This document shows, piece after piece, positions 38,393 to 59,788 of a stretch of DNA of 64,000 nucleotides. The notes under the pieces were generated by a model. It searched no databases, was not told the DNA's origin, and was given only the letters and a program-made list of their open reading frames with translations. The DNA is from a virus (lineage: Duplodnaviria > Caudoviricetes). The position numbers and the translations under genes are program-made. Position 1 is the stretch's first letter, and each line of letters opens with the position of its first letter. The stretch spans positions 9,819 through 73,818 of the IMG/VR virus record IMGVR_UViG_3300020576_004709; one strand, 5' to 3'.

Positions 38393-39490
38393 TCACGTCC
38401 AAGTAATCGAGGCGTGGCCCTCGGGGTGAATCGGAGCCGGCCCGCCGTTGAACCCGACGTCGCCGATAACCTGCGGCGGCATCAACCGGTACTGGACGAG
38501 GGTGTACATCCCGGACGAGATCGCGTTCTTGTTCGCGTACTCGTCCGTCCGGCTGTCGATGCCGCCGCCCGGCAGCGCCTCCTTCGCCATCGAGCGGGTG
38601 AACTGCCACTGGCCGAGCGGCTCGCCGTCCTTGCGCTTGCCCGCCCAAATGACGCGCCGGGTCGTCAACTGCCGCACCCAATTCGCCGGGTCGCGGGAGA
38701 GCGCCTTCGTCGGGTAGTAACCGGCGTCGTAAAGCTCGATCTGCGGGAGATCGTAGCTGCCGAGAAGCTGGTTCACCTTCTTGAGGCCGTTGACCGTGTC
38801 CCCGCCGTCGATCCGAATCTTGTTGGAGATCTGGTCGATCTTGAGGAACTCCGCGAGCGAGAGTTCGTTCATGTACAGCTTCGATTCCGGTCCGAAGTTG
38901 GTCGACCGGCCGGCCTGGAGTTGGGCCTTCCACGTCAGCAGGTCGAAGATCGGCACCGCCGTCGCCGCCGTGCTCCAAGTGATCGTCGGCACGAACTTCT
39001 GGCGGGTCGAGTAGTTCTCGATCGTGTCGCCGTAGGTCACGCTCCCGTCCGCCGAGCGGGCGATGAACGTCCCGTCGAGCATGAGGCTGATGATGATGTC
39101 GCGGATCTCCACGACCGTCTGGCCGAGCAGGTTGCCCATGCCGAGCATGACGAGCGTCGAGATCCCCATCGGGTCGCTGGCCGTGCCCGGCTGGCGCTGT
39201 TCGAGCATCTGCTTCTCGGTCAGGACGAACCGAGACCCGAAGAGGCCGGGGTCCATCGAGAACCGCTTGTAGCCGGGGATCGGAGTGACCGTCGGCTCGC
39301 CGTCGAGTCCGCGCAGTTCCATCTTCCCGAACGGGTTTTCCTGTTGCTCCCAAATCACCGAGAATTCCTTCTGGTAGGTCGAAGGAAAGAGTTGGATGAT
39401 CGGGTCGCTTTCCATCTCGGCCTGGAGGAGTTCCGCCGCGACGAGTTGCGTCGAGAAGCTCCGCGTCAGGTTCAGGGTTTCGGCCGGCAT
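38393..39490 (-). CDS. major capsid protein (lambda gpE-like)
   Basis: IIQLFPS...SVIWEQ...ELRGLDGEP...TWSTAATAVPIFDL...IELYDAGY; follows decoration gene, followed by terminator. Confidence 0.85.
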   Translation of the reverse strand: MPAETLNLTRSFSTQLVAAELLQAEMESDPIIQLFPSTYQKEFSVIWEQQENPFGKMELRGLDGEPTVTPIPGYKRFSMDPGLFGSRFVLTEKQMLEQRQPGTASDPMGISTLVMLGMGNLLGQTVVEIRDIIISLMLDGTFIARSADGSVTYGDTIENYSTRQKFVPTITWSTAATAVPIFDLLTWKAQLQAGRSTNFGPESKLYMNELSLAEFLKIDQISNKIRIDGGDTVNGLKKVNQLLGSYDLPQIELYDAGYYPTKALSRDPANWVRQLTTRRVIWAGKRKDGEPLGQWQFTRSMAKEALPGGGIDSRTDEYANKNAISSGMYTLVQYRLMPPQVIGDVGFNGGPAPIHPEGHASITWT

Positions 39491-40452: not shown

Positions 40453-41853
40453 TCAGTTCGCGCCCGCCGTCTGCTTGGCCAACCGCGCCTCGCGCAGCCG
40501 CATCGCGTGCCGGCCCTGCGAGGTCTTGCTGAGGAGGTCGTCGGCCGTCATTTGGAACGGGAGATCCTCGTTGGTGGCGTTCAACTCGCCCGTCCCGTCG
40601 GCGTTGGTCTGGTTGGCCGGCGGCGCGGTCGGGAAGATGCGGTTGCCGAACCCACGATCGGGCAGGCTCATCACGAGCTTCTTGCCGTCCTCGAACTTCG
40701 CCGGGTCCGAGAGCATGTTTTCCCACGTCTCGCGGTGTTGGTTGCCGCCGATGCGGGCCTTGACCGCCGTCGAGTCGAGGAACGTCCGCACGTTCGTCAG
40801 GTGCGCGGCCTTCGCGTCGCTGTCGGCCTTCTTCTTCTGGTCGGCGAGCATCGTGTCGAACCGGCTGATGATGCCGTTCTGCTTCCGCACCACGTTGACG
40901 AGCGCCTTCTGCCGCGTCGCGAGGTCGGTGAACGCCTTCACGCCGGCCGCCGGCATCCCGGCCATCGCGTTCGGGTCGACGTCCATGCCGTCCGGCGGGA
41001 GTTCGTCCATCATGTTGATGGGTTGGTCCGACGGCATGGCCGGCGCGCCCTCGGCCGGCGGTGGCGGCGCGTCGGTCGGGGCGGGACCGCCCCCCATGAC
41101 GCCTTGCAGGATGGTCACGACCTGTTGCAGGGCCGCTTGAATCTTCGGGTCCATTTTCAAAATCTCCACGGGTACGCTGCCGTAGGCAGCTTGGTCAGAA
41201 AACGCACGCACCGGCCTCGGCGGCTTCGGTTGCCCCCGGACGCTCGGCGGTTCGCCGCCACACAGCGTAACGGCTCGCATGATGATCCCCCACGCCTGGC
41301 CGTTCGGCCGGCGCGGGAACCCCGCCTTCGTCTCGATCTCTTCCCGGTAGGTATCCCAAAACTCCACCGATGCCTGGTCGAACAGCAGGGTATCGAGGGC
41401 GATCGCCGTCGGGTGGTTCACGGCCAGCGTGACCCACATCCAAGCGCCGTCCCAACCGCAATCGACGACCCAACCGAGAACGAACCCGTTGTCGTGCTTG
41501 AGCGTGACGCGGGGAACGTGGTAGGGCGTCTCGCTGTTGATCGGCTGCGTGAACTGGTGGAAGTTCCGAACCATGTCCTCGCAGTCTTTCGCCGTCCACT
41601 CGCTCGTGCCGTCTTCGTTTGGCCCGCCGTTCCACGGTCCGGGGCAGAAGATCGCCCACTTCTCCACGAGGTAGACGGCGCGGTCGAGCGCCGGGTCGTC
41701 GCTGTCGTCGCCAAAAGTGTCGGTGAGCCGCGGGTTCGAGGAGTCCTTCCGCCGCACCGAATCGACGAGCCGGAGCGCGTCGAGATCCTCGGTTTTCAGC
41801 GGCCGGATCTGCGACGGCCGGCGGATTTTCAGGGTTTGAAGGGAGGCGACCAT
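40453..41853 (-). CDS. Mu-like prohead protease/scaffold
   Basis: WAIFCPGPWNG...VTLKHDNGFVLGWV...QASVEF...RAVTLCGGEPPSVRG, then low-complexity coiled-coil scaffold. Confidence 0.8.
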   Translation of the reverse strand: MVASLQTLKIRRPSQIRPLKTEDLDALRLVDSVRRKDSSNPRLTDTFGDDSDDPALDRAVYLVEKWAIFCPGPWNGGPNEDGTSEWTAKDCEDMVRNFHQFTQPINSETPYHVPRVTLKHDNGFVLGWVVDCGWDGAWMWVTLAVNHPTAIALDTLLFDQASVEFWDTYREEIETKAGFPRRPNGQAWGIIMRAVTLCGGEPPSVRGQPKPPRPVRAFSDQAAYGSVPVEILKMDPKIQAALQQVVTILQGVMGGGPAPTDAPPPPAEGAPAMPSDQPINMMDELPPDGMDVDPNAMAGMPAAGVKAFTDLATRQKALVNVVRKQNGIISRFDTMLADQKKKADSDAKAAHLTNVRTFLDSTAVKARIGGNQHRETWENMLSDPAKFEDGKKLVMSLPDRGFGNRIFPTAPPANQTNADGTGELNATNEDLPFQMTADDLLSKTSQGRHAMRLREARLAKQTAGAN

Positions 41854-41894: not shown

Positions 41895-42797
41895 TCACCA
41901 TGCAAGGGGAATCTCGCCCGTCCGTTGAAGTTCCCGCTTGCCGGGCGCGAGACGGTTCCAAATCAACTTGTGGATCGGCGTCCAGTTGCACCGGCAGTTG
42001 CACACGTCCTTCGCTTCGAGTCCCCGCACGACGACGAACGGCGTCGAGATCGGGTAGTACAGCCCGTCCTTCTCGCGGTGCCACGGCCGGGTGCGCTCGT
42101 CGCGGATCGCGTGGTATTGCCACGCGGGGAACTCGGCCCGCATCCCGCTCGCGTTCAACTCGTCCTGCTGCCCACGGTTGAGCGCGTCCATGACGTTCGT
42201 GCGCACGACCATCTGCGAGTATTGCGAGTGCAGGGGCGAAATGCCCGCGTCCTTGAGGATGCCTTCGACCGTCAGCGTGGCATCCTGGCCGCCGACCAGC
42301 TCGTTCGCGATGGCCTGCTGGATCTTCTTCGTGACGACGTCCTCCGTCGTGACCGCGACGTTGAACACTTCCCGCTGGATCCCCTGCGCGTAGTTGTTCG
42401 GGTTCTGCCCGACGCGCGGCACGAGCGAGGAGAAGTACCGGATGGCCGCGTGCGGTTTCAGCGGCCGCAACTCGGCGACCGCCTCGGCGAACTCCGGCAA
42501 CGTCACGTTCCCGGTCGAACCGTAGAAGCGGGTTCGCCCGACGAGGTCGCTCGGCACGATGACGGCCTCGACGACTTCGTTGAGCGCCGCCCGATCCTTC
42601 GCGTCGAAGATCCAGCCGAGGTTCCGAAGCACCTGGCCGGACGCGACCCGCTTCTTCAAGGCGCCTTCGACGATCGTGCTCAGCGCGATCGACCCGAACG
42701 CGACTGCCTCGGCCAGCCAGTCGGCGATCGACCGGCCGCCGGGTCCGGGCACGGTCTCGGGGTTCGGCGCGTCGGGCGGTCCTGCGTACTCGTTCAC
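41895..42797 (-). CDS. MuF / SPP1 gp7-like minor head protein
   Basis: VVRTNVMDALNRG...WQYHAIRDERTRPWH...CNCRCNW; GTG overlaps the stop of the giant ORF. Confidence 0.9.
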   Translation of the reverse strand: MNEYAGPPDAPNPETVPGPGGRSIADWLAEAVAFGSIALSTIVEGALKKRVASGQVLRNLGWIFDAKDRAALNEVVEAVIVPSDLVGRTRFYGSTGNVTLPEFAEAVAELRPLKPHAAIRYFSSLVPRVGQNPNNYAQGIQREVFNVAVTTEDVVTKKIQQAIANELVGGQDATLTVEGILKDAGISPLHSQYSQMVVRTNVMDALNRGQQDELNASGMRAEFPAWQYHAIRDERTRPWHREKDGLYYPISTPFVVVRGLEAKDVCNCRCNWTPIHKLIWNRLAPGKRELQRTGEIPLAW

Positions 42798-45700
42798 TTC
42801 GATTTCTCCGCTTCGGGGGTTCCTTCGGCCGGCTTCTTGTTCTCGCCCTTCAACTCCTCTTCGAGCTTCTTGAGGGCCTCCATCTTCTGCTTCAACTCGG
42901 CGGCCTTCGGGAACTCCTTGCCGATGCCCGCCTTCGTCCGTGCGATGTCGGCCTTCGCGCGGGCGATGTCGTCCTTCGCGGCGTCCGCGCCCTTCTGCAA
43001 GTTCCGGGCGACGTACTCGATCGACTTCAACGACTCGCCGACACCGAACCGGCTGTCGTGGTGTTTCGATTCGAGGTAGAGCTTTTCGCCCCGCCGCATG
43101 AGTTGGAGTCCCTTGAACTGCCCGACCCGCACGCCGATCCCGTAGGGGTCCTGCACGTCCTTCAACGCCTGTTCGAGGGCCTTTTCCGCCTCGGGCCGAT
43201 CGGCGTAGTCCTGGCCGTTCAGGTGGATCTTGAAATCGACGTGCTTCTCCATGTCCCCCGCGTCCTTCGCGAGGTTCTCGGCATGGCGCTCGAGCATCGG
43301 CAAGTTCCGCTCGCCAGACGCGACCGCCGCCTTGAGCTTGTACTGTTCCGAATCGTGGCGCTTCCGACCCGCGTGCAGGTTCTTCAAGTCCTCGTCGAGC
43401 TGGACCTTTTGCAGGACGCGGGGGTCGCCCGACGCGGCGGCCATCAACTGCTCGGGGGTGAGCTGCGCCGCGTCCTCTTCGCCCACGGCCCGCTGCGTCG
43501 TCCCGCCCGGCGTCATGACCTGTTTCACGAACCGGAGCTTGTTGCCGATGATCTGCCAGAACGTCCGGTCGAGACTGCCTTCCGTGACGTAGCTGACGAT
43601 CTTCACCTGCTGCTCGTGCGCGGCCTTCGAGGGGTCGTTCATGTTCCCCTGACGCCATGCCCGCCCGTTCCGCTGCTCGACGCTCGCCGGGGTCCACGGC
43701 ACGTCCAAGTGGTGCAGCGCGTACAGCTTGTCCTGGACGTTGACCCCGGTGCCCATCTTCTTCGAACTGCCGATGGCGACGAGGATCTTGCCTTCCCGCA
43801 TCGCCTGCATCGCGTTTTCCTTCTTCTCGCCGGCGAGCTTGGAGAAGTCCGCGATCTTCTCGCGCGGGATGCCGCCCTTGACGAGCTTCTCGATGATGTC
43901 GCCGTAGAGGTTGAAGGAGTTCCCCGCGTTCACGTCCCCTTCCTCGCCCGGCTTGTCGTACACGTCGGCGAGGCCGAGGTTGTCGTCGTCCCCGCCCTTC
44001 TCGCCAATGTCGTTGACCCCGATGTCGGAGAAGATCATTTGCGTCCGGCCCGGATGTTCCTTGTTGATCTTCAAGACGTTGCGGACCGCGAGGTTCGTCT
44101 TGCTGTCCGGGTGGTCGACCGCGTTGGGATCGAGGAGCCGCATGTCGAGCGCCCCCTTCCGCCCGTCCGTGCAGATGACGAGCATGTTGTCCTTACCGCC
44201 CCGCTTCAAGTTCTGGGCGCGGGTTTGGAGGCTGTCCATCAGGCGGGCGATCTCCGGCGTCTTCGGCGCGGTCTCGTAGGAGTCCTCGCGCTTCGGCCGG
44301 ATGAGGGACGCCGAGCCGTCGGGGTTCTTCATCGCGTCGGCCCGCTGGATGTCCAGCATTTGCCGGCTCATCTGCATGAGTTCCGGGATGTTGGTGAACT
44401 TCGCGAAGCGGGATACCGGCTTGTAGTCGCCGGCGACGGTGAACTCCATCTTCGTCTGCACGTCGCCGAAGGTGGACGCCCACGCATCGAACGTGTGCAG
44501 CCCGCGTTCCTTCAACTCCTGCGGTTGGAGGTAGCGCTGCATGTTGTAGAGTTCGGCCATCGTGTTATCGACCGGGGTGCCCGTCGCGAACACGACCCCC
44601 CGGCCGCCGTTGTTCTCCATCAACCACTTCGTGCGCATGTACATGGCCGTGGCCTTCGCGCTGCGGCCGGTCGGAACCCCCTTCAAGCCCTGCTGCTTCG
44701 TGTAGCACGGCAGCGACTTGTAGTTGTGGGCCTCGTCCACGAAGATGTGGTCGATGCCGGTCTCTTCGAAGAACACGGCGTCGTCCTTGCGGCTCGGGTC
44801 GAGCGCCTCTTGGAGCTTGGCCTCGAGGTTCTTCTTGGCGTTCTCCAGCGACGTCTGTGCCCGGCTCTGTTTGCCCTTCGGCTCGTTCGCCATCATTTCG
44901 GACCGCACGGCTTCGAGTTCCTTCAACTCGTCGCGAATGTGTTCGGCGACGGTCTCCGGCTTCATTTGGAGCATGTCGAGGTTGTCGTGCGTCATGATGA
45001 CCATGTCGTAATCGCCGGTCGCGATTTGGCTGATCGTCTTCTTCCGGTTCGCCTTGTCGAAGTTGTCCACGGTCGAGAGGATCTTGGCCCCCGGATACAG
45101 GTGTTGCAACTCGCGCGTCACCTGCTCGATGTTCGCCTTGAGGCACGCGATGGCCGGCTTCTTCGCGAGGCCGAGCCTGCGGAGTTCCATCGCGGCCGCA
45201 CCCATCGTATAAGTTTTCCCGGTCCCGACTTCGTGGCCGAGTAGCCCCTTGCCCGTCGTCACGACTTGCCACACCGCGTTCGCCTGGTGGTCGCGCAGCT
45301 TCACGCCGGGGTTCATGCCGGGGAATTGCAGGTGTTGGCCGTTGTACTTCATCGGCACGACGTTGTTGAAGTTGTCGTTGTAGTGCCGGTGCAGTCGGTC
45401 CCGGCGCTCGTCGTCGGTCCACAGCCATTCCTTGAACTTGTCCTTGATCTCCTGAATCTTGGCGTTCGCGTTGTCGGTCTCTTCCCGGTTCACGACGGTC
45501 GATCCGTCCGAAATCTTGTCGGTGACGCGCACGCTCGTGTTGTTCAGCGCGGCCTCGAACAGTTCGTCGAACGACTTGCGGGGCGTGGCCCAAACCTCCG
45601 TCGCGGTCTTGGTGTTGGCGACGTACCGCTTGCCCTCGTTCGAGTAGTTCGCGATCCACGCGCCGGAGTGCGGCAAGTAGCTGATCTTGAAGTGGTGGTT

Positions 45701-48700
45701 CTGGCCGCCGAGCAACGACGCGGCGAACTCCGAGACGTCGGACGACGGCACCCACGGCACGCCGAGCTTGGCTTCGATGTCCTCGTGCGACACGTCCTCG
45801 GGCTGAACCTTTTCGAGCGCCGCCACGTTCGCGGCGAACTTCGGGTCGGTCTCGGCCGCCGCCCGCGCCATGGCCAGCTTCCGCCGGACGTTCCCCGAAA
45901 GGTACTGGTCGGCGGGTTGCCACCCGGCCGACGGGTCGGAGTAGGCGAGGCCGGCATCGACCAAATGCTTTTCGACCGCCTCGCGCGGCAGCGACGTCAG
46001 CGCCGCGATCCGGTCCACGTCCACGCCGCCGGATTCGTGGAGCACGACGCCGAGCGCCTCGGACGGGTCGTTCGCCTTCTCCACCTTCGACACGGCCTTG
46101 ATCGTGTCCTTGTGGAAGATGTCGGCCTTCTCGAACTTGCCCGTCTTCGGGTTGGCCTTCTCCATCGCCAGCAGGATCGGCGAATCGGGGTCGGTTCGGA
46201 ACGCCGCCTTGTTGCCCTTCGCGTTGAGCGGTCCGTGTTCCTTGACGAATTGATCGTAGACCGCGTTCAGCATGGCCCGCGCGGCGGTCGCGTCGCCGCC
46301 CGCGATCTGCGTGTTGAGCACGTCCCGCATCGCGTCCCGCACGGTCATGTGGGCCTGGATCTTCGCCGCGACCGCCGGCTTCACGTCGGCCTGCTCAACC
46401 ATCTGGTCGCCCTGGCGGATGTAGACCTTCCCGCCGTCCACCTTGAACCCGCCCGCGCGAACCTCGCCCGGTGCCGGGGTTGCCGCCGGTCCCGCGTACC
46501 GCTCCTTCGGCGCGGTCGCCGCCGAGTAGAGGCCCTTCGGCAGACGGTCGATCGCCGCGGCGAGCCGCTGTTCGTAGTCGGCCGTTCGCGTGACGTTGAC
46601 GCTGTTGCCCTGGTACATGGAACCGGTTCGGTCCACCGTGCCGAGCACCTGGCCGGGATTCTCCGCGAAGTAGCGGTTGATCGGGATGGCCTCGCCGCCG
46701 GCCGGGTCGGGAACGGTCGTCGTCTCCATCCAGTTCGTCGCGGACGGCGGTTCGCCCGGCAACCGCTTCCGCAGGATGAGCATGTCGGTCACGACGTCGG
46801 TGCCGGCGTTCGACTTGTGGGCACCGGACGGGAAGCGGATCGCCGAGACGAGGTCGCACGTCTTGCCGAGTTGCTGGCGGATGGACGGGTCCATCTTGTC
46901 CAGCGTGCCAGTGCTCGTGATGTGCATCACGAGGCCGCCGGGCCGCACGAGGTCGGCCGATTTGAGGAAGAAATAATCGTGGATGTTCGCGCCGTGCTTG
47001 TTGTACTTCGGGTCGTGGACGCGGTAGTCGCCAAACGGCACGTTGGAAGCCACGAGATCGTAGAAGCCCTCGGGTGATTGGAGCTTCTCGAACCCGTGGA
47101 CCTTCACGTTCGCGTTCGGGTAGAGGTGGCCGAGCATCCCGCCGGTCGTCGGGTCGAGTTCGACGGCGGTCGTCTTCGTGTTGCCCGCGATGTGCGACGG
47201 CATCATGCCGAGGTAGTACCCGATCCCGGCCGACGTTTCGAGAAATCGCCCGCCCTTGAAGCCGAGGCGGTCGGCCATCTTCCAGTGGGCGTCGACCACT
47301 TCCGGGGCGGTGTAGTGCGCGTTGAGCTTCGAGGCGCTCGCCGCGTCGTACTCTTCCGGGGTGAGGAGTCCTTCGAGGATCTCTCGTTCCTTGCGCCACT
47401 CGTTGCCGTACCGGTTGAACAGGCCGGGGAACTGCCCCCACCCGACGTACCGCGACATGACTTGCTGCTCTTCCGGGGTCGCGGTGGTGCGGCCCTCGGC
47501 CTTGATCGCTTGAAGGGTCTTGATCGCCGCGACGTTGGCCGCGAACTTCGTCCGCGCGCCGCCCGTCGCGAAGTCCTTCGACGTGTACTGGAAATTGCCG
47601 GTGCCCGCGTCCGTCGGGTTCTCCGGCGTCGAGGGCTTGGCTACCGACTGTTCAGCGGGAGATTGAGCAACAACTTCCGGGTTGACTCCATCTGGTCGGA
47701 CATCCCGGCTTCCACTTCCCACGCCTCGGGCCGGGCGACTTCGTCCGGCGGGGTCGGCAGAAATTGACTCAGGACGAACTCTCTCGCCGCCGACGGGTCG
47801 TTGCCCGCCGTCTCCATCCGGTCCAGCAGGTCCATCGCTTCCCAAGTCTGCGACTGTAGGTACGGCTCGAAGTCGCCCGACGTCTGCATTTCCGCCGCCA
47901 GTTCCGGGAAGTTCCGCAGCAGGTGCGCCCGGAGCATCTGTTCCCACTGGTTGCCCGGCTGGTAGCCCTGGTTCGCCGCGTCGCGGGCCTTCGTTTTCCA
48001 GTTGGTTTCGCTGCTCATCGGATGCCGCCGGGGTTTGAGGTTCTGACCCTATGCTATTCGTAATACCCTGCCCATCGAGTAGTTCGCCCATCTTCGGGGA
48101 ATCTTTGACCTTCCGCGCGGTCGGTACCTTCTCGCCCTTGCCCGCGATCGGCTGGCCGGACGCCTGATCTACTTCCTGAACTTCGTTCCCGTTCACGCGG
48201 TACGGCTTGCCGTCCACCGTCCAGAGGTTGCCCCGCGACTTCTTGATCTTCGCCCCATCGATCGGGATGCGCTTGTTCTTCATCCACGCGCCGAGGACGT
48301 GCGCGTCGCTCATGTTCGACGTGGGCAAGTGCGGGTTCTCGCCCGCGTGCGCGTTCGCGTAGCCGTGCTTGAACGCCTCGCTCGGGTTCGTCGGGGCGGC
48401 CGTCAGCCCGTGATCCTCGTCGCCCGCGTAGCCCGCGGCGAAACTACCATCCGCGTCCTGCTTCACCTGGAACTTGCCGGAGTTGTCCCCCATCTGCGGC
48501 TTCGTCTCGCCCGGCTTCGGCATCGCGGATTCCATGCCGCCGTGCAGTTCGAGGGCCTTCTCCCGCGTGATCGGCTTCCACTTCACCGCGAGGGTCTTTT
48601 GGACCGGCGCGGCCTGGCCCGCCGGAACGCCCGCCGTCGCCGGCGGCTCCGCTGGCTTCGCGCCGCCCGGCGCGGCCTCGCGCCCGCCCGCGCCGCCGGC

Positions 48701-51700
48701 CGGCTTGCCGTCCTTGTCGAACTTCAACGAGCCGAGCGTCACTTGGCCCGGACCGGCGGCCGCATTAACTCCCAACGACTGACCATCAACTCCCAACGAA
48801 GCGGGCTTTTCTGTCGTCGGCTGCGCGTCGGCTGATTCCTTTGCGACCGGGTAGCCGTCTGCGGCCTTGCCAACGCGGTACCATTCGCCGTCCATCTTGA
48901 ACCGGCTGCCCGCCGCGCGCTGCTCGATATTCAATCCGTGCTCGGCGGCGAACTCCTCGGCTTTCTGGTGGTCGAGTTCCCGGTGCGCGTCGTCGAGGCT
49001 GAGTTGCTGGCCGGCCTTCGGCGAGGCGGCCGGGAGTTTGATGAGGTCGCCGAGGAGGTTGCGCGTCATGCCGGGCGGCGTCGGCTTGTCGCCCGCGTCC
49101 GGTGCCGGCGGGATGGCCTCGCCGGGGTTCGGGTCTTTTCGTGCCGGGGAAACCGATGCGGGTTGATCGTCGGCGGATTGGCCTCGGGCCTTCGCGTACT
49201 CGGCCCGCTGCTTGTCGCTGAGGGAGTTCCACGGAGTCTTGGCGAGGGTCTCGGCATACTCGTCGTCGTGGCCCGCGTTGGTCCAGTGCTCCAAGCGATC
49301 CTCGTGCGCGTCGGCCTGGTAGTCGTCGGAGGTGAGGTTCTTCTTGCCGAACGCTTCGTCGTTGAGATCGGGCGCGGCGGGCTTTGGCTGCTCGGCCGGC
49401 TTCGCGAGGAAGTCGCCGAGGATGTCGTCCTGCTGCTTCGATGCCGGTTTGGATTCGGGCTTTGCAATCTCGGCATCGAGCAAGTCGTTCGGAGCGTGCG
49501 GCGACGCGCTCAGACCTGGGGCTTGATTTGGGCCTGCTGGCTGAGGAGTTCCCGCGTCCCCCGTTCCGCCCGCTGCTTTTGCTCCGGCGTCATCGCCCAC
49601 GGCCGGGGCACCGGCGGGGGTTGTGAGGGGGCGGCCGAGTTCGGCGTCGATGGCGGCGTTGATGCCGGCAAGGGACTGCTGCTTGACATGATCCTTCTCC
49701 GTTTGCGACTTCGCCGTCGCGAGCTGGATGGCGGCCACCTTGACCGCCTGGGAAATCGGGCCGCTGCGGTTCTGCAAGCGGTTGAACACTTCGAGGCGGT
49801 ACGCGGAGTCCTGCTTCCGCTTCTGGTTCTCGTCGATCGCCAGCACGTTGCCGGCACCGGCCACCCGCCCCGCGCGGGCCTCGCTGGACACCGCCGCGTA
49901 GTCGCCGACCGCCTGGGAGAGCTTTCGCCCGGCGAACGACTGGATTTCAACCTCCTGGTCGAACGTGTTCTTCTCGTTCTCGAAATCGCCGAAGAGGTTC
50001 GTTTCCTTCTCGGTGTAGCTTCCCGCGTCGGCCATCTTCCGCGCGGCGGTCTCGATCTCGGAACGGTTCCATTCCCGTTCGCCGTTCTCGGCCCGGCGCT
50101 CGAGCTTCTGGAACAACTGCTCTTGCCTCGCGTGGTCGGGGAGATTCTTCGCCACCGCGACGGCGGTTGCCTCGTCGAGTTGGCCGTTCGTGAGCCGCTG
50201 GAACGACCGCTCGTTCAGGTTCGCGAGCGCGACCGCGTCTTGGGCCATCTTGCCCGAAACGCTCAGGCCGGCGTTGCGCAGGTGCTCGATGCCCTCGCCG
50301 GTGTCGCGCAGGTACTTCGCCGCGTCGATGGCCGTGCCACGCCCCTCGGCGATGTTGGCCAGCGCGCCGCGGCTGCGGGCTTCGACCGCGTCCTTCGCGT
50401 CGATGTACCGGACGTTCATCGTGTCCTGGCCGGTCCGCTCGGCGAGGCCGTGCCGGTTGTGGCCGTTGACGACCACGTCTTGACCGCTCGCGGGATCCCG
50501 CCACGCGAGGATCGCCCCGCCGAGTTCCGGGTTCCACTTCGCGGCGCCTTTGAGTTCGCTGCCGATCCCGCCCTCGTCGACGTCCATCACCTTGTACTGG
50601 AACCGCTTCGGGTCGCGTACCAAACTCGACGTCGGCACGGTGTAGACGTCCGACGGCGACGGTACCGACGGCGTACCGTTCGGTCGCTTGGCCACTTCGC
50701 CGGACTGGACGGCGGCAACCGGTCGATCGACCGACGCGCCGGCGGCCTTCGTCTCGGGTCGCAACCACTGCTGCATGGTCGATTCGGTCGCGCCGGCGGT
50801 CGCGTCCTTGCGGTACGGCTCGACTTCGTCGCCCTTCAAGAGCTTGTCCGACTGCTCGGTCCCGTAGGCCGCGCGCGGGCTGGCCCCGTGCATTCCGCCC
50901 GTCATGCCCTTGATGACCGCGTCGGCCATCTGGTGCCGGCTCATGCCGAACGTGTTGCCCCATTGGGTGTGCTTCTCGACCATGTCGGCGAGTTCGCCCC
51001 TCGGGATCTTGTGGAGGTTCTCTTGGAGATCCTTGACGTGCTCGCCGGTGAACTGGCCCTGTCCGTGCGCGGCGGCCGCGCGCTGCACCGCTTCCTGGTG
51101 CGGCGAGAACTGCGGCCCCTTGTCCTTGCCCGCGTGCGGGTCGGGGATGTAGCCGGCCTGGATGAGCGCGTGCGTCTGTAGCGATTGCACCATCGCGTCC
51201 CGCCGGCGGCCGTTGGTGAACCGCGTCGCGAGGCGGTCGCGCACCCGCTTCAACTCGTTCACGTTCAGCGCGTCGAGATGGCCCGCCAACTGGCGGAACG
51301 TCTTCGGAGAAGCCTTGTCGTTCATCACGTCGCCGGCCAGCTTGATCGCGTCGGCCTTCGACGCCTGGGTCTTGTCGTATTTCTGCTTCGACTCGGTCGC
51401 CGCCTGCGCGTAGTGCTGTTCGCCGCCCTGCTGCGCGTGGAGCGCGGCCTTCGCCTTCGGGCCGTACAGCGTCTTGCCCGCGTGGTCGCCCATCCCGACC
51501 GCCTTCACGTTGCCGGTCGAAGTCTGCTGCGCCATCCACATGAACGCGCGGGGCTGCTGCCCCGCCTGCATCGCGTCCATCGAATCGCCGGCCGAGTTGT
51601 CCCCGCTGAGCATGTCCTGCAAAACGTCGATCGCGTGCCCGAAACCGTGCTGGTGCCCCTCCATCTGGGCGCGTAGCCGCAGGTTCATGATCGCGAGCAG

Positions 51701-53302
51701 GATCGCCCGCGACATTTCGGGGTTGCCGTTAACCTGGCGTTCGCCCGGTGCCGGATCGGTGTCGACTTCGGTGCCCTCGCCCGACGCGCCTTCGAGGTCG
51801 GTATCGTCCTCGTCCTCGACGTCCTCGTGACCGCCGAACGCCGTGACGCCCTTGACCGGCTGGCCGTCCTTGCCGGGGATGCCGGCCTTCGGATCGAAAT
51901 CCGGCTTGCCGCCGCCGGCGGGCGGTGCGGTCGGAGCGCCCGGCACCGGAGCGCCGCCCATGCCACCCATTCCGCCCATGCCCGGAAACCCGCCGACCGA
52001 CATGCCGGACATGGCCGCGTTCTGGCCGACGAGTTTGTCGGCCGCGTTCTTCGGCGATTCGAGGCCGAGCGTCTGTTGCACCTGCGCGAGGGACAGGCCG
52101 TGCATTCCGAGGAGGTCTTGGCCGAGCTTGAGCACGTTGCCCCGCTTCAAGCGCTGGTCGGGCGACATGCCGCCGAGGAGCACGCGGGGAAGCCCGATGT
52201 CCCGGTCGGTGTAGTTGAGCTTCATCAACGGCTTGACGATCTGGTAGCGGATGACGTTACACACTTCCATCGCGAGCATCCATTCGCCGAGTTCCGTGAC
52301 GCCCCGCGCGACGGTCGAATCGCCGATGTCCGATCCGCTCTGCCCTTCGAGGAACGGCAGGTAGGCCCACCGCGTCGCCGTGTAGACTTCCTTCCGCCAG
52401 TCGTCGAGGGCCGACTGAAACGTCTCGCTCGTCCCGGTCGCGAAGTCGAGAACTTCAATCGAATCTTCCGGGGCGCAGTTGATGTAACCCATCGACCGGG
52501 CGCGTTCGAGGAGATCGGCCGCGACGAGCCTGGCTTCCGGGTCGCTGAACTTGCCGACCAAGAACGGCCCGGTGAAGTTCTGGATCATGATGAGCCGGAG
52601 CTTCGTCGTGCTCTCGATCATCGTCGCCGCCCGCAACGCGCCGCGGAACATGCTGCGGCCATACGGGTTCTTGAAGAGCGATTGGTAGCTGAAGAGCGTG
52701 AACTTGCCGGGGTCGAACAGGATGCCGGAGTTTGCCCGGTTCGCGCGGATGCCCACGACGTTTCGGAATGCGTCGATGTCCATGTTGACGTAGTTGACGT
52801 CGATGGGATCGAGCGCCGCGAGACAGAGGTATTTCCGCCACGAACCCATTTCCGGATAGTCAAGCACGATTTCGTTGAGGCCGTAGCCGTCGATGAGCGC
52901 ACCGGTCGCGATGTTCTTGATGACCGCGTGCCAACCGCCGTTCGCGCATTCGTCGATCGCCGCCTTCGCGTACTCCGCGGCCTCCTTGTTCTTCGGGTGC
53001 CGGTCGTCATACGGCAACACCTGCGGCTCGTAGGAACAGATCCGGGCAATCATCGAGTCGAACGCCGAAATCACCGTCGGCTCGCGAAGCATCAGTTCCC
53101 GGTACTTCTGGCGCTTCTCCGGCGTTTCGAGCGTGAGGTTCTCGAAGCTGTTCGGGTTCGTGAAGAACGACCGCATCCACTCCGTTCGGAACTGCCGGCG
53201 CTGGAACTCGGTCACGTCCGGCATGACCAGTTGCCGGCCGCTCGGCCCGGTGCCGTACTGGTTGAGCTTGTCGTTGGAGTTCGCGTACAGCGTCGAGAAC
53301 AT
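42794..53302 (-). CDS. 3502-aa fusion: portal (DUF935/Mu gp29-like) + ParB-like domain + N6-adenine MTase + SNF2/DEAH helicase (DarB-like polyvalent protein)
   Basis: Portal: YRELMLREP..NPYGRSMFR..GPFLVGKF; ParB-like: RFQYK..KWNPELGG..VVNGHNR; MTase: FLETSAGIG, SNVPFG; helicase: HEVGTGKT, VDEAH, ATGTP, QRNGRAWRQGN; no stop in 10.5 kb. Confidence 0.9.
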   Translation of the reverse strand: MFSTLYANSNDKLNQYGTGPSGRQLVMPDVTEFQRRQFRTEWMRSFFTNPNSFENLTLETPEKRQKYRELMLREPTVISAFDSMIARICSYEPQVLPYDDRHPKNKEAAEYAKAAIDECANGGWHAVIKNIATGALIDGYGLNEIVLDYPEMGSWRKYLCLAALDPIDVNYVNMDIDAFRNVVGIRANRANSGILFDPGKFTLFSYQSLFKNPYGRSMFRGALRAATMIESTTKLRLIMIQNFTGPFLVGKFSDPEARLVAADLLERARSMGYINCAPEDSIEVLDFATGTSETFQSALDDWRKEVYTATRWAYLPFLEGQSGSDIGDSTVARGVTELGEWMLAMEVCNVIRYQIVKPLMKLNYTDRDIGLPRVLLGGMSPDQRLKRGNVLKLGQDLLGMHGLSLAQVQQTLGLESPKNAADKLVGQNAAMSGMSVGGFPGMGGMGGMGGAPVPGAPTAPPAGGGKPDFDPKAGIPGKDGQPVKGVTAFGGHEDVEDEDDTDLEGASGEGTEVDTDPAPGERQVNGNPEMSRAILLAIMNLRLRAQMEGHQHGFGHAIDVLQDMLSGDNSAGDSMDAMQAGQQPRAFMWMAQQTSTGNVKAVGMGDHAGKTLYGPKAKAALHAQQGGEQHYAQAATESKQKYDKTQASKADAIKLAGDVMNDKASPKTFRQLAGHLDALNVNELKRVRDRLATRFTNGRRRDAMVQSLQTHALIQAGYIPDPHAGKDKGPQFSPHQEAVQRAAAAHGQGQFTGEHVKDLQENLHKIPRGELADMVEKHTQWGNTFGMSRHQMADAVIKGMTGGMHGASPRAAYGTEQSDKLLKGDEVEPYRKDATAGATESTMQQWLRPETKAAGASVDRPVAAVQSGEVAKRPNGTPSVPSPSDVYTVPTSSLVRDPKRFQYKVMDVDEGGIGSELKGAAKWNPELGGAILAWRDPASGQDVVVNGHNRHGLAERTGQDTMNVRYIDAKDAVEARSRGALANIAEGRGTAIDAAKYLRDTGEGIEHLRNAGLSVSGKMAQDAVALANLNERSFQRLTNGQLDEATAVAVAKNLPDHARQEQLFQKLERRAENGEREWNRSEIETAARKMADAGSYTEKETNLFGDFENEKNTFDQEVEIQSFAGRKLSQAVGDYAAVSSEARAGRVAGAGNVLAIDENQKRKQDSAYRLEVFNRLQNRSGPISQAVKVAAIQLATAKSQTEKDHVKQQSLAGINAAIDAELGRPLTTPAGAPAVGDDAGAKAAGGTGDAGTPQPAGPNQAPGLSASPHAPNDLLDAEIAKPESKPASKQQDDILGDFLAKPAEQPKPAAPDLNDEAFGKKNLTSDDYQADAHEDRLEHWTNAGHDDEYAETLAKTPWNSLSDKQRAEYAKARGQSADDQPASVSPARKDPNPGEAIPPAPDAGDKPTPPGMTRNLLGDLIKLPAASPKAGQQLSLDDAHRELDHQKAEEFAAEHGLNIEQRAAGSRFKMDGEWYRVGKAADGYPVAKESADAQPTTEKPASLGVDGQSLGVNAAAGPGQVTLGSLKFDKDGKPAGGAGGREAAPGGAKPAEPPATAGVPAGQAAPVQKTLAVKWKPITREKALELHGGMESAMPKPGETKPQMGDNSGKFQVKQDADGSFAAGYAGDEDHGLTAAPTNPSEAFKHGYANAHAGENPHLPTSNMSDAHVLGAWMKNKRIPIDGAKIKKSRGNLWTVDGKPYRVNGNEVQEVDQASGQPIAGKGEKVPTARKVKDSPKMGELLDGQGITNSIGSEPQTPAASDEQRNQLENEGPRRGEPGLPAGQPVGTDAPGAPAAELPGTGGGNADVGRLRAVPTVADLGSDGPAGPDGDGGQRPVGGERVRPESISADPAGRSRPARGVGSGSRDVRPDGVNPEVVAQSPAEQSVAKPSTPENPTDAGTGNFQYTSKDFATGGARTKFAANVAAIKTLQAIKAEGRTTATPEEQQVMSRYVGWGQFPGLFNRYGNEWRKEREILEGLLTPEEYDAASASKLNAHYTAPEVVDAHWKMADRLGFKGGRFLETSAGIGYYLGMMPSHIAGNTKTTAVELDPTTGGMLGHLYPNANVKVHGFEKLQSPEGFYDLVASNVPFGDYRVHDPKYNKHGANIHDYFFLKSADLVRPGGLVMHITSTGTLDKMDPSIRQQLGKTCDLVSAIRFPSGAHKSNAGTDVVTDMLILRKRLPGEPPSATNWMETTTVPDPAGGEAIPINRYFAENPGQVLGTVDRTGSMYQGNSVNVTRTADYEQRLAAAIDRLPKGLYSAATAPKERYAGPAATPAPGEVRAGGFKVDGGKVYIRQGDQMVEQADVKPAVAAKIQAHMTVRDAMRDVLNTQIAGGDATAARAMLNAVYDQFVKEHGPLNAKGNKAAFRTDPDSPILLAMEKANPKTGKFEKADIFHKDTIKAVSKVEKANDPSEALGVVLHESGGVDVDRIAALTSLPREAVEKHLVDAGLAYSDPSAGWQPADQYLSGNVRRKLAMARAAAETDPKFAANVAALEKVQPEDVSHEDIEAKLGVPWVPSSDVSEFAASLLGGQNHHFKISYLPHSGAWIANYSNEGKRYVANTKTATEVWATPRKSFDELFEAALNNTSVRVTDKISDGSTVVNREETDNANAKIQEIKDKFKEWLWTDDERRDRLHRHYNDNFNNVVPMKYNGQHLQFPGMNPGVKLRDHQANAVWQVVTTGKGLLGHEVGTGKTYTMGAAAMELRRLGLAKKPAIACLKANIEQVTRELQHLYPGAKILSTVDNFDKANRKKTISQIATGDYDMVIMTHDNLDMLQMKPETVAEHIRDELKELEAVRSEMMANEPKGKQSRAQTSLENAKKNLEAKLQEALDPSRKDDAVFFEETGIDHIFVDEAHNYKSLPCYTKQQGLKGVPTGRSAKATAMYMRTKWLMENNGGRGVVFATGTPVDNTMAELYNMQRYLQPQELKERGLHTFDAWASTFGDVQTKMEFTVAGDYKPVSRFAKFTNIPELMQMSRQMLDIQRADAMKNPDGSASLIRPKREDSYETAPKTPEIARLMDSLQTRAQNLKRGGKDNMLVICTDGRKGALDMRLLDPNAVDHPDSKTNLAVRNVLKINKEHPGRTQMIFSDIGVNDIGEKGGDDDNLGLADVYDKPGEEGDVNAGNSFNLYGDIIEKLVKGGIPREKIADFSKLAGEKKENAMQAMREGKILVAIGSSKKMGTGVNVQDKLYALHHLDVPWTPASVEQRNGRAWRQGNMNDPSKAAHEQQVKIVSYVTEGSLDRTFWQIIGNKLRFVKQVMTPGGTTQRAVGEEDAAQLTPEQLMAAASGDPRVLQKVQLDEDLKNLHAGRKRHDSEQYKLKAAVASGERNLPMLERHAENLAKDAGDMEKHVDFKIHLNGQDYADRPEAEKALEQALKDVQDPYGIGVRVGQFKGLQLMRRGEKLYLESKHHDSRFGVGESLKSIEYVARNLQKGADAAKDDIARAKADIARTKAGIGKEFPKAAELKQKMEALKKLEEELKGENKKPAEGTPEAEKSK
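47641..48018 (-). CDS. nested same-strand gene inside the giant ORF (TnpV-like helical protein, tentative)
   Basis: Protein-like composition (MLRAHLLRNFPELAAEMQTSGDFEPYLQ..EAMDLLDRM) where the giant frame reads as Gly/Arg/Pro-rich off-frame text. Confidence 0.6.
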   Translation of the reverse strand: MSSETNWKTKARDAANQGYQPGNQWEQMLRAHLLRNFPELAAEMQTSGDFEPYLQSQTWEAMDLLDRMETAGNDPSAAREFVLSQFLPTPPDEVARPEAWEVEAGMSDQMESTRKLLLNLPLNSR

Positions 53303-53390
53303 GGGGGTTGCCGCCGGTGAGGTCGTTGAGCCGTCTTGGGTTCGATCTTATGCGATGCCGCGAGGAAATGAAACGCCGTCGCCCGACCGC

Positions 53391-53436
53391 GAAGGTTGGT
53401 TGAAATTTGGTTCGCATTTGGTTCGCGTTTGGTTCG
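53391..53436. repeat. four 11-bp-phased TGGTTCG repeats
   Basis: Cores at 53397, 53408, 53419, 53430; inverted near-copy of 4053-4098. Confidence 0.75.
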
Positions 53437-53447
53437 TTTTCGAGAAA

Positions 53448-53486
53448 CGAGCGCATTTCGAGCGATTTCCGAGCGCAATTCGAGCG
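53448..53486. repeat. four 11-bp-phased CGAGCG repeats
   Basis: Cores at 53448, 53459, 53470, 53481. Confidence 0.65.
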
Positions 53487-53521
53487 CCGCCCGGTCGAAA
53501 TCGGGCGCGCACCACCGGCAT

Positions 53522-53890
53522 TATCCTCCAACACTGCTAACCGCAGGGAAGACAAGGGAATTAGAGTGCTGCGCCAACGTGGCCGAAACCACACCAAACG
53601 AGCGAACTTCGGAACCGGCAGTTGCGTCCTGTGACGGACTGAGTGTTGGAGTCCCCGTTGACAGCCATTGGTCAGAGCGGGGTTTATTGCAACTGCGATC
53701 GGCCCTCCCGAAGTCCTTCACTTCCCCTGCGGTGCCCGGTGGTGAGGCACCGCCCTCGACGGGGAACTCTCGCGGGTACGCTATGCCCCGCGCCGGCCGG
53801 CCGATAGGTAAGAACGCCGCGCGAACGGGCGAAAGCCCCGTTCTGAAGAACCATGCCGCGCTGAGGACGGCTATTCGGCTGTTGCTTTTT
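53522..53890 (+). ncRNA. candidate large structured ncRNA of unknown class
   Basis: More than ten stems in two multibranch domains, a 10-bp pseudoknot, a GAAA tetraloop and a terminal hairpin plus T5, in a gap with no credible ORF. Confidence 0.65.
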
Positions 53891-54134
53891 ATCGACCGCT
53901 TTGGTGGAAAGTGACCGAAATGCGTTGAAGTGGCCTATTCGGAATCGTATTATTCCGACGTCGACCGCTGCATTTCAATCGAGCCGCTCGAAGCTATCAA
54001 CTTCGGCGGCTTTTTCATTTCCTTCGCCTCATCGGTTCTAGGCCACCCCCGGCCGCGCGTCCAAGAAAAAATCCGCTTGACGTTCCGGGGAACATCAAGC
54101 GGATTGCTTAACAAGCCAAATCTGTCAAGTAATC

Positions 54135-54923: not shown

Positions 54924-55099
54924 TGGTCACTCCGAACGATGGTAAAGTAAGCGGGAACGACGTAGCCCGAAGGACCGCGCCGGGTAGCTCGAATGCAAAT
55001 GTACGATGCAAGGTGCGCAGGAAAGTATTCCGGATCGTACTGTTTCATCCATTCCGGCAACCAGCCGGTGGGCCAGAAGTATTGGGGAAGCTCGTTCAC
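54920..55099 (-). CDS. small hypothetical protein
   Basis: GTG start overlapping the upstream TGA. Confidence 0.5.
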   Translation of the reverse strand: MNELPQYFWPTGWLPEWMKQYDPEYFPAHLASYICIRATRRGPSGYVVPAYFTIVRSDQ

Positions 55100-55326
55100 G
55101 GTCCATCCTTGAGCTTGAGAGAACCCGGTGTTATGTAACCCCGGTCGCGCCCGTCGTCGAACTGCACGTTCGCCAAGATCCTGTGGCCGCCCGGCCGCGT
55201 CAGCGTGAGCACCGTCCCCGCGTGGACGCCCTCGCGGTTCTCGTAAGTAACGCGGTCGCCCTCGCGGATGGTGCGGCCGCTCTTGCCTTCCCACACTCCG
55301 GGCCGGCGGTTGCGTTTCATCGTCAT
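55096..55326 (-). CDS. small SH3/KOW-like hypothetical protein
   Basis: IREGDRVTY...GTVLTL...NVQFDDG. Confidence 0.6.
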   Translation of the reverse strand: MTMKRNRRPGVWEGKSGRTIREGDRVTYENREGVHAGTVLTLTRPGGHRILANVQFDDGRDRGYITPGSLKLKDGP

Positions 55327-56185: not shown

Positions 56186-56268
56186 GATTGCCCAATTCCT
56201 TTGGCGAGAGTTGTTCGTTCGGCGTTGGTGCCGATTTCGAAACAGTATATGCGAATCGTAATAGTCGG

Positions 56269-58090: not shown

Positions 58091-59788
58091 TTAGAAACTC
58101 GCGTCCTTCGGGTTCCAGCCGATCTGAGACGAGCGCCACCGCTCCTTCGTCTCGGCCTGGGCGGTTTGATCCTTCTTCGCGGCCGCGATGGACGATTGCA
58201 CCTTCACGTCGAGCCGGCGGGCCAGCATTTCGAGCGCGTCCGGGCCGTCGTCGTGCAGGCCGGTGAACAGGTTGCTCAACTGGTGGACGAGTTCCCGGCC
58301 GCCCCGCGTGTTGCGCACCCGGATCTGGCGGCGCGCGAGGAACGTGTCGAGGCGCCGGATGCGAATCTCCTTCGGGTCCGAGTTGTCGATCCCGTGGAAC
58401 TTCGGACGGTTGATGCCCCGCTCCTTCGCGATACGCTGGAGTTCGGTGTCGATGAGGTCGCCGAAGATGTTCGTCTCGGCCGTGAGTTCCTCGACGCCGT
58501 TGAACTGCTCGACGATCTGGATCGTGCGGCCGAGCATCGAGTTCGCCGCCTCGCGCTGGAAGTCGGCATCGACGTAGATCTTGCCGTCCACGGCCGAGAC
58601 GCCGCCCCAAACGTGGGCCTGGAAGTCCCCCGGCTTGTCCGTCTTCCCCTTGCTCGGGTCGAGCGCGTAGCCCTTGAACCGCAGCGCGGCCGGCCACTCG
58701 TTGAAGTACATAGTCTCGTGGTTGAAATACTCCTCGCCCCACTCGCACACGCCGCCCGCGCTCGTGATCGCCTGGTACTCGGTGTCGAAAGCCTTCGGTC
58801 CCCGCTCGGCCCGAGCGAGCATGAGCGCGAGCAACGGTTTCCACGAGGGCCAGAGCACCCGCGCACCACGCTCCATTTCCTTCTGGTTGCAACGGTAGAA
58901 CTCGGCCGCCGTGTCGTTCCGCCGCGGGTCGCCGAGGTTCGTGAGCAGCGATTCCCACTTCTCCCAAAGGTCCATCCGCTCCGGCCAGTTCATGATCGCC
59001 TGGAAAGACTTGCCTTCCCAACGAGGCGTCTTTGTGAGCTGGACCGCGATACAGTCCCGGTGGAGCGCCGTCCCGACCGAAATGAAATTGGTGTCTTCGC
59101 CGCCGGCCGGGATGACTTCCATCGTGAGCCAGTCCCAAGCGTTGATCCGGCGCTTCTCGCTCGTGATGTCCTTGTTGTTCTGGACGTCGTCGAGGACGAT
59201 CTTCGTCGGCCGCGCCTCGCCCCGCTTGATGCCCCGGATCGAACTGCCCTTCCCATACGCCTCGACGCGAATACCGTTGCGGGTCTCGATCTCGTCGGCC
59301 TTCCACACGAGGCCCTTGCCGTGCGCCTGCGGATAGTGCTCCTTGATGAGCGGGTTCAGTTCGAGTTGCTCCTTGATCTCGAACAGGAACTTTTCGGCCT
59401 GGCTGTCGGTGTCGGAGAAGATGACGATGTACCGCTCTCGCCCCTCGCAGATGTCGCGCAGCAGGTCGATGAGCGTCGTCCAGACCGATTTGCCCGACTC
59501 GCGGGGGGCGATGAAAGCGTGCCGCGATCCCCGCTTCTGCCAAGCGTTCGAAAGGTTGATGTCGAGGTAGCGGTGAAACAGGCTCGGCTCAGACTTGCAG
59601 AATCGCGGGGTGAACGCCTGGCCCCACTCAATTAGACTCCGCGCCGGCTGCTGGATGGTAGCCGTTGAGGAGTTGTTGACCGGCGGCGGTGGGGGCAACG
59701 GCGGGAGGTTCGTCCACCACTCCCTTACGGCGGAACGTGGAGCGAAGTACCTCAGCGACCTTATGTTGGAGATCGAGCGGGAGCGCAT
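58091..59788 (-). CDS. terL: terminase large subunit (true start uncertain, probably near 59630-59700)
   Basis: IAPRESGKS, IVLDDVQ, VGTALH, ALDPSKG, HDDGPDALE. Confidence 0.9.
   Translation of the reverse strand: MRSRSISNIRSLRYFAPRSAVREWWTNLPPLPPPPPVNNSSTATIQQPARSLIEWGQAFTPRFCKSEPSLFHRYLDINLSNAWQKRGSRHAFIAPRESGKSVWTTLIDLLRDICEGRERYIVIFSDTDSQAEKFLFEIKEQLELNPLIKEHYPQAHGKGLVWKADEIETRNGIRVEAYGKGSSIRGIKRGEARPTKIVLDDVQNNKDITSEKRRINAWDWLTMEVIPAGGEDTNFISVGTALHRDCIAVQLTKTPRWEGKSFQAIMNWPERMDLWEKWESLLTNLGDPRRNDTAAEFYRCNQKEMERGARVLWPSWKPLLALMLARAERGPKAFDTEYQAITSAGGVCEWGEEYFNHETMYFNEWPAALRFKGYALDPSKGKTDKPGDFQAHVWGGVSAVDGKIYVDADFQREAANSMLGRTIQIVEQFNGVEELTAETNIFGDLIDTELQRIAKERGINRPKFHGIDNSDPKEIRIRRLDTFLARRQIRVRNTRGGRELVHQLSNLFTGLHDDGPDALEMLARRLDVKVQSSIAAAKKDQTAQAETKERWRSSQIGWNPKDASF

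Follow-up and report, generated by a model that had tools for sequence, protein, structure and literature searches.

A Mu-type phage portal protein extended in frame by a DarB-like polyvalent protein in an uncultured tailed virus

The subject of this study is one gene of a tailed virus (Caudoviricetes) deposited as IMG/VR record IMGVR_UViG_3300020576_004709, which was analysed over a window of 64,000 nucleotides corresponding to bases 9819-73818 of the 73,818-bp record; coordinates below are in the numbering of this window unless another genome is named. On the minus strand of this window, a single open reading frame (ORF) joins a portal domain of the phage Mu type to a long array of further domains, ending in a methylase-helicase pair related to the DarB protein of phage P1. 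The gene and its parts are as follows (aa, amino acids; pI, isoelectric point; AF2, AlphaFold2).

42794..53302, minus strand: whole fusion gene (portal plus polyvalent cargo), a single ORF from ATG to TGA, 3,502 codons and aa, 378.9 kDa
52028..53302, minus strand: Mu-type portal domain, aa 1-425, 47.9 kDa (Pfam PF06074 and phrog_113)
51719..52027, minus strand: linker 1, aa 426-528, Gly/Met/Pro-rich and then acidic, pI 4.05; candidate cleavage zone
50693..51718, minus strand: unnamed conserved module U1, aa 529-870, basic, pI 8.9
49628..50692, minus strand: ParB/Noc-fold domain, aa 871-1225, with GHNR at 947 (alignment, AF2 and Foldseek, phrog_21)
47993..49627, minus strand: middle region, aa 1226-1770, low-complexity linkers and a small module at aa 1325-1400 shared with the relative P0007
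42830..47992, minus strand: DarB-like module (methylase-helicase dyad), aa 1771-3491 (phrog_10089, BLASTP to P1 DarB)
46403..47605, minus strand: N6-adenine methyltransferase domain, aa 1900-2300, motif IV NVPF at aa 2087 (P1 DarB match)
43523..45322, minus strand: SNF2/SF2 helicase, aa 2661-3260, with GTGKT and with DEAH at aa 2856 (PF00176, PF04851, PF00271)

Both ends of the protein are identified by several profiles. Portal_Mu (PF06074) matches aa 67-413 over positions 4-335 of its 336, at E 2.6e-23 and 83.3 bits (cut-off 23.9), which is a full-length family match; the portal piece searched alone gives E 1.2e-24, and phrog_113, 'portal protein', spans aa 65-429. The C-terminal 1,720 residues (aa 1771-3491) are matched at E=0 by phrog_10089, 'DarB-like antirestriction', and BLASTP against P1 DarB returns three collinear matches, to the methylase (3e-18), the helicase N-lobe (5e-29) and the helicase C-lobe (9e-12), so that 'DarB-like' here means homology in the same domain order and goes beyond a database label. 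The Pfam SNF2, ResIII and Helicase_C matches together span aa 2667-3219, and the catalytic motifs are in place: NVPF (2087) in the methylase, and motif I GTGKT and motif II DEAH (2856) in the helicase. GC content at third codon positions stays at 0.80-0.93 from end to end of the ORF. A preliminary description, made from the letters alone, had read this locus as one 3,502-codon ORF with portal, linkers, methyltransferase and SNF2/DEAH helicase; Pfam, PHROGs, the motifs and the P1 DarB BLASTP all bear this out.

The part between the portal and the methylase is less easily named. Neither Pfam nor NCBIfam gives a family name to any of aa 426-1900, and U1 has no match in Pfam, PHROG, NCBIfam or the ESM Atlas; its sequence is about 30% identical to the same position in the relatives P0004, P0006 and P0007, and 35% identical in P0153. 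Over aa 870-1300 no Pfam family was found at E<=0.5, and the PDB, queried by sequence with the DarB-like module and with the ParB-like region or its profile, yielded no usable match. The alignment of the ParB-fold region with nine homologues has 72 invariant columns and an invariant G-H-x-R (GHNR here, aa 947). Its AF2 model has a mean predicted local distance difference test score (pLDDT) of 84.9, and in Foldseek this model finds Noc (7nfu) and ParB (6t1f) at E 4e-6 and probability 1.00. Matches to Noc, ParB, KorB and Spo0J together range from E 4e-6 to 9e-3 at probability 0.99-1.00, and sulfiredoxin stands lower in the list (E ~0.07). The C-terminal part of phrog_21 also matches the region, at E 1e-91. 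The region has the N-terminal Srx-like fold, the GxxR motif and the helical DNA-binding part of the ParB/Srx superfamily. A label as a ParB domain of the P1 DdrB type was considered and rejected, since neither P1 DdrB (hhalign of the ParB-fold profile, probability 0.2%, i.e. no match) nor a Pfam ParB-type model matches by sequence; going by the structural model, aa 871-1225 is a ParB-fold domain only and not of the DdrB type. The ParB-like identity first proposed for this part therefore stands through AF2 and Foldseek, and its extent is revised from aa 885-1035 to aa 871-1225. A ParB-fold domain, a methylase and a helicase are thus found in one ORF of the head module, the composition expected of a polyvalent protein.

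Since the junction between portal and cargo is GC-rich and of low complexity, we considered whether the fusion might be an artefact, that is a missed stop, a frameshift, or a chimeric assembly of a portal gene and a separate DarB-like gene. Read support across 52.0-51.5 kb had been called for in the preliminary description as a check for a missed stop, and Logan contigs of three runs, all from one study that may include the source sample, each cover 42700-53400 in one gapless piece, with 0, 0 and 1 differences, the sole difference being the substitution S432Y. Among the sequencing runs listed for this sequence, none was of RNA. In run X4, a groundwater metagenome from another study, the ORF of a relative differs by indels of 3, 6, 12 and 21 nt or by compensated pairs. 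The X4 contigs do break at the junction and leave 51758-51953 uncovered, which might be taken in favour of an artefact; it is a low-complexity assembly break and carries no evidential weight. Uninterrupted ORFs also occur in independent samples: P0002 (3,568 aa, portal 90% identical, on a syntenic 29-kb contig), P0007 (3,512 aa, 45% identity in the portal and 58% in the cargo, placed directly after TerS and TerL) and P0153 (3,668 aa, portal 40% identical) all keep the frame. The length of linker 1 differs among relatives, and its indels are all in-frame.

A codon-level comparison of the window gene with P0002 points the same way, the ratio of non-synonymous to synonymous divergence (dN/dS) being below 1 in every segment of the ORF, as under purifying selection. 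The values are 0.12 for the portal, 0.33 for linker 1, 0.28 for U1, 0.11 for the ParB-fold domain, 0.79, 0.21 and 0.23 for aa 1226-1324, 1325-1410 and 1411-1770, 0.18 for the methylase and 0.11 for the helicase; only two low-complexity stretches come near neutrality (0.79 and 0.64). With contigs spanning the whole ORF, in-frame relatives at 90%, 45% and 40% portal identity, indels in threes or compensated, and a linker under constraint, the artefact reading is effectively excluded.

A separate observation concerns the start of the DarB-like module. A 125-codon ORF at 47641-48018 (minus strand) lies in the +1 frame inside aa 1771-1900 of the giant ORF, over a stretch that the main frame translates as a Gly/Pro/Arg-rich linker. 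It is open and conserved in P0002 (72.6% identity) and P0007 (50%, E 5e-39), it has no Pfam match, and the synonymous divergence of the main frame is lowest exactly there (proportion of synonymous differences 0.217, dN/dS 0.64), so that 47641-48018 looks like dual-coding sequence.

The record has direct terminal repeats and is rated 100% complete by CheckV, and this allows the question of other portal genes to be put to the whole genome. Portal_Mu has one match in the 73,818 bp, and there is no match to PF04860, PF05133, PF12236, PF05136 or PF16510 (the HK97, SPP1, T7, lambda and P22 portal families), the blank for the T7-type PF12236 being uninformative as this profile matched no control genome either. 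The earlier statement that no other portal gene is present therefore holds, and by these profile matches the fusion gene is the genome's single portal gene, a member of the Mu gp29 family. It lies within a head module, the other members of which are given here.

58091..59788, minus strand: terminase large subunit (TerL; phrog_38, E 2.7e-65), upstream of the portal
54135-58023, minus strand: genes of the terminase-portal interval, namely a C5 cytosine methylase (584 aa), a CsrA-like protein (103 aa), a 213-aa gene and an RNase T-like exonuclease
41895..42797, minus strand: MuF/SPP1 gp7-like minor head protein gene, 300 aa (PF04233, E 5.6e-15; TIGR01641)
40453..41853, minus strand: probable head maturation protease/scaffold, 466 aa (syntenic homologues), two genes downstream of the fusion
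38393..39490, minus strand: major head protein, 365 aa (phrog_29, E 6.4e-8; position the same in relatives)

The order is thus terminase, four genes, about 830 nt, portal fusion, MuF, the 466-aa gene, a 263-aa gene and the major head protein. The 213-aa gene of the interval has no match, and the stretch of about 830 nt (53303-54134) that separates the portal start from the RNase T-like exonuclease gene holds no ORF above the calling thresholds. Relatives keep this order, with TerL upstream of the fusion and with MuF, the probable protease, the 263-aa gene and the head protein downstream of it. One relative (L008) has a BubE-family gene inserted between the portal fusion and MuF, and a similar, not identical, set of genes between terminase and portal, including HNH, DUF4326 and RNase H genes.

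MuF follows the fusion as a gene of its own, as had been stated: its PF04233 match, at 41985-42329 (minus strand), lies in a different frame from the fusion ORF and is the only MuF match. No MuF domain is found within the fusion polypeptide, which therefore does not belong with the MuF-fused effectors. The GTG start of MuF (42797-42795) overlaps the TGA of the fusion (42796-42794) in the tetranucleotide GTGA, with GGAG 8 nt upstream, and this arrangement suggests that translation of MuF is probably coupled to that of the 10.5-kb portal ORF.

The same architecture was sought in other genomes, as the preliminary description had proposed, and it recurs. When 1.84 billion cluster representatives were searched by HMMER with aa 1-440, 765 relatives were returned, and in all of the best 150 of these 765 the portal domain is N-terminal. 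Together with the query these make 151 proteins of 351-4,399 aa, 60 of them longer than 1,000 aa and 114 longer than 600 aa, which makes the stand-alone portal the minority state in this clade. A word-index search had found no shorter portal homologues; the full HMMER search showed this to be a limit of sensitivity and not an absence. Similarity to the ParB-fold region is present in 20 of the 150 listed relatives, over most of its length in 9.

What follows the portal varies widely. Among 35 long clade members scanned with Pfam, all 35 carry Portal_Mu, and their cargo includes ADP-ribosyltransferase (ART; 4 proteins), MuF (4), an intein splicing domain (3), InPase (2) and Pretoxin-HINT (1), with single cases of NUDIX, topoisomerase IB, Kinase-PolyVal, 2H phosphoesterase, peptidase C39, a DddA-like deaminase and SAP. 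Two very long members, P0009 (4,128 aa; L009) and P0013 (4,399 aa; L010), have the portal and the same ParB-fold domain followed by an AAA_34/Helicase_C_4 helicase, without the DarB dyad; as judged from these domain matches, their cargo is swapped on a conserved frame of portal and ParB-fold domain. In both of these genomes no MuF Pfam match was found downstream of the fusion.

Seen from the cargo side, the best 120 of 6,626 DarB-like giants bear, by precomputed Pfam labels, Portal_Mu in 15 cases, MuF in 9 and PF05136, the lambda-type portal, in 2. The last two are P0157 (5,046 aa) and P0164 (5,827 aa), known by these precomputed labels only; if the labels are correct, portal cargo fusion arose in a second portal family. 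Our own portal hidden Markov model (HMM) also detected a second Mu-portal lineage, more distant than the first, in which nine proteins have an N-terminal portal domain (P0194, P0205, P0213, P0216, P0217, P0233, P0240, P0249 and P0256). For P0217 and P0194 Pfam puts Portal_Mu at about aa 89-480, and P0194 carries the JGI automatic name 'N12 class adenine-specific DNA methylase/phage gp29-like protein'. In total, the layout of portal plus DarB-like module is present in at least 15 database clusters, and the same fusion is seen in P0002, P0007 and P0153 and in the nine proteins of the second lineage.

Cultured phages contain no close relative of the portal, tblastn giving only weak matches to Bacillus phages. 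The cargo modules do occur there, within stand-alone giants encoded among virion or ejection genes: LASTA gp01 (4,433 aa), VvAW1 gp01 (3,640 aa, with the gene of a 'DNA ejection' protein two genes upstream), a 2,563-aa protein of a Prochlorococcus autographivirus and a giant of more than 3,900 aa in Ruegeria phage 45A6.

How might such a protein work? The C-terminus of a portal protein projects into the capsid interior, the portal ring nucleates procapsid assembly, and the portal remains in the virion. A C-terminal extension would, from this geometry, be an internal passenger, and each head would be built with up to 12 copies of the cargo beneath the portal, without a further system for targeting it to the capsid. 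The cargo amounts to 3,077 residues and 331 kDa per copy, so that 12 copies would make about 4.0 MDa by arithmetic, which is within the range of known internal protein bodies such as the T7 core and the phiKZ inner body. As the portal stays in the particle, injection would require that the cargo be cut off, and we suggest that the head maturation protease, probably the product of the 466-aa gene, does so in the Gly/Pro/acidic linker; the freed cargo would then exit by way of the portal and tail, ahead of the DNA or together with it, and would protect the entering genome against restriction, in the manner of P1 DarB. Taken whole, the reading that the sole portal carries a 3,077-residue polyvalent cargo into the head, from which it is cleaved, ejected and put to the protection of the genome, is one that we consider rather probable. 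The preliminary description had proposed that the portal loads the cargo and that the cargo is ejected first; loading agrees with the internal C-terminus and the conserved architecture, and 'ejected first' would hold only with the cleavage proposed here.

Three lines of evidence make cleavage plausible: a precedent in Mu, the position and homology of the 466-aa gene, and the domains of some relatives. In Mu gp29 the last 124 residues are absent from the virion structure, which has been attributed to cleavage by protease I (PMC11915804). The Portal_Mu profile ends at aa 402 in Mu gp29 (profile coverage 2-336) and at aa 413 here, and these matching ends place the beginning of the cargo where the segment of Mu gp29 absent from the virion begins. 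The 466-aa gene occupies the position of Mu gene I, and the genes at the syntenic place in relatives are its homologues (E 5e-16 and 1e-7). The PHROG 'head maturation protease' families match three of five aligned homologues and not the window copy, and the Atlas lead for the 466-aa protein is Mu-like_Pro (0.95); by transitive homology it is probably the head maturation protease. The extensions of some relatives contain HINT/intein or C39 peptidase domains, which could themselves release the cargo.

Several findings weigh against this reading. The 466-aa protein has no direct HMM match, PF10123, PF04586, PF00574 and PF01343 being all negative in the genome, its comparison with Mu gpI by hhalign gives no match, and its AF2 model is of low confidence (pLDDT 40). 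The HExxH peptidase motif is absent from the fusion protein, and no conserved cleavage motif was found in the linker when it was compared among relatives. Twelve cargoes of 331 kDa on one ring could hinder assembly or packaging, and the phage is uncultured. An 'x-A-F' cleavage motif was also considered and set aside, the AF dipeptide occurring 7 times against 10.8 expected and the linker sites not being conserved in relatives.

These findings bring in the alternative that the cargo is never released and remains covalently attached to the portal crown within the head, where it might, for example, methylate or handle DNA in transit, and is not injected. That no protease can be assigned directly in the genome by HMM and no cleavage motif was found would fit such a tethered enzyme, as would the long and flexible linkers; moreover, all DNA passes the portal twice and would meet the tethered methylase-translocase and the ParB-type clamp. 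A free cytoplasmic methylase would nevertheless be a simpler route to the same job, the same modules stand at ejection-protein positions in cultured podophages, and the ART, kinase, NUDIX and deaminase cargo of relatives has targets in the host cell. The C-terminal part of the Mu portal is missing from virions (PMC11915804), and PMC5512222 treats P1 DarB and the polyvalent proteins related to it as injected. We therefore regard permanent tethering as unlikely.

The steric concern raised by 12 copies of 331 kDa leads to another alternative, in which most subunits of the ring are short portals, made by early proteolysis, premature termination or recoding in the linker, and only a few bear cargo, in copies well below 12. 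Engineered T4 portal-GFP fusions are said to assemble and package best in mixed rings, and a ribosome shifted in the linker would indeed yield a short portal here, with stops at codon 539 in the +1 frame and codon 524 in the -1 frame. A canonical slippery heptamer is, however, absent from aa 380-900 in the window gene, P0002 and P0007, and no conserved nucleotide signal is seen in the linker, whose sequence and length both vary, all of which makes a mixed ring improbable in our judgement.

A further alternative accepts injection and changes the function: the cargo would mainly organise or circularise the incoming genome, or start its replication or transcription. The ParB/Noc fold is a DNA-clamp/CTPase fold, and no function is assigned to U1 and the other modules, both of which leave room for such roles. 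Against them stands the dyad, homologous to and collinear with P1 DarB, which is known to protect against type I restriction (cited in PMC5512222), and we give this alternative little credence.

A broader proposal, which we put forward tentatively and rate at slightly less than an even chance, is that Mu-type portals serve as a general modular platform for capsid loading. The C-terminal part that is trimmed from Mu gp29 would, across a large uncultured clade, have evolved into an exchangeable cargo arm delivering a fixed dose (up to 12) of swappable effectors at the DNA exit, among them DarB-like dyads, ARTs, kinases, NUDIX, InPase, deaminases and topoisomerase, so that the sole portal would double as an anti-defence delivery device. 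Such arms would have arisen in at least two Mu-portal lineages and, by the precomputed Pfam labels, on lambda-type portals. If the cargo does ride in on the portal, capsid targeting would have been solved without a dedicated loading system of the kind reported for P1, the dose would be fixed at no more than 12 copies per virion, and the enzymes would be placed at the DNA exit. The system would then offer a test bed for the packaging of very large proteins, their release from a structural ring and their threading out of a capsid. Long portal ORFs, which are easily dismissed as annotation errors, would be a widespread reservoir of anti-defence effectors, and the cargo tolerance of the portal ring that is displayed by natural fusions bears on the use of phage heads as protein-delivery vehicles.

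Among known systems, the closest in its cargo is P1 DarB (2,255 aa), with its collinear and homologous adenine methylase and SF2/SNF2 helicase. The P1 protein is head-internal and linked to restriction protection, as the counterpart here is proposed to be. P1 DarB is a free protein, loaded into the head through Hdf, DarA and DdrA, and the module described here is part of the portal polypeptide, preceded by a ParB-fold domain with no detectable sequence relation to P1 DdrB. In P1 (L017, 10469-19021) darB adjoins the portal gene prt in divergent orientation, the darB promoter overlapping the start of prt, and this adjacency is a gene-neighbour counterpart of the fusion.

In its carrier, the protein resembles Mu gp29 (512 aa), which belongs to the same Pfam family and stands in the same gene order of portal, MuF, protease and head protein. 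The two differ in that their pairwise similarity is weak and the C-terminal part of the Mu protein is short and without enzyme domains. The best BLAST match between the two portals (E 0.02) is compositional, lying in proline-rich/acidic C-terminal regions; it was too weak and was not used. The giants of Klebsiella phage LASTA, Vibrio phage VvAW1, Erwinia phage PEp14 and Burkholderia phage BcepMigl are about 33-38% identical over about 81-91% of the DarB-like module and are likewise encoded in the virion module, beside structural or DNA-ejection genes. They differ in being encoded separately, where the structural module ends, and, by annotation only, in not being portals. MuF-fused cargo also uses a head-internal assembly protein as its N-terminal carrier, and the two carriers meet in places, with MuF on 9 of the 120 best DarB-like giants and portal-MuF fusions in 4 of the 35 long portal relatives; here, in contrast, the portal does the carrying and MuF has its own gene downstream.

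The placing of an effector on a portal is itself a published concept, and the initial remark, which knew of no described portal fusion like this, needs correcting on this point. Iyer et al. 2017 (PMC5512222) defined polyvalent proteins, among whose domains the methylase-helicase dyad, with DarB as archetype, ranked third in prevalence, and that paper also describes PBECR, 2H and InPase domains fused to portal domains, for example in BcepF1.124, which it interprets as being packaged and injected. Nudix, 2H and ART domains fused to MuF or portal are added by Iyer et al. 2022 (PMC9503650). The accessible text of these two papers (PMC5512222, PMC9503650) speaks of 'simplest architectures' with single small effectors, and contains neither a sole portal with an array of about 3,000 residues that includes the DarB dyad nor a statement that most of a portal clade carries such arms. 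The portal-borne polyvalent protein is thus a recurrent and structurally extreme variant that extends the published portal-enzyme fusions.

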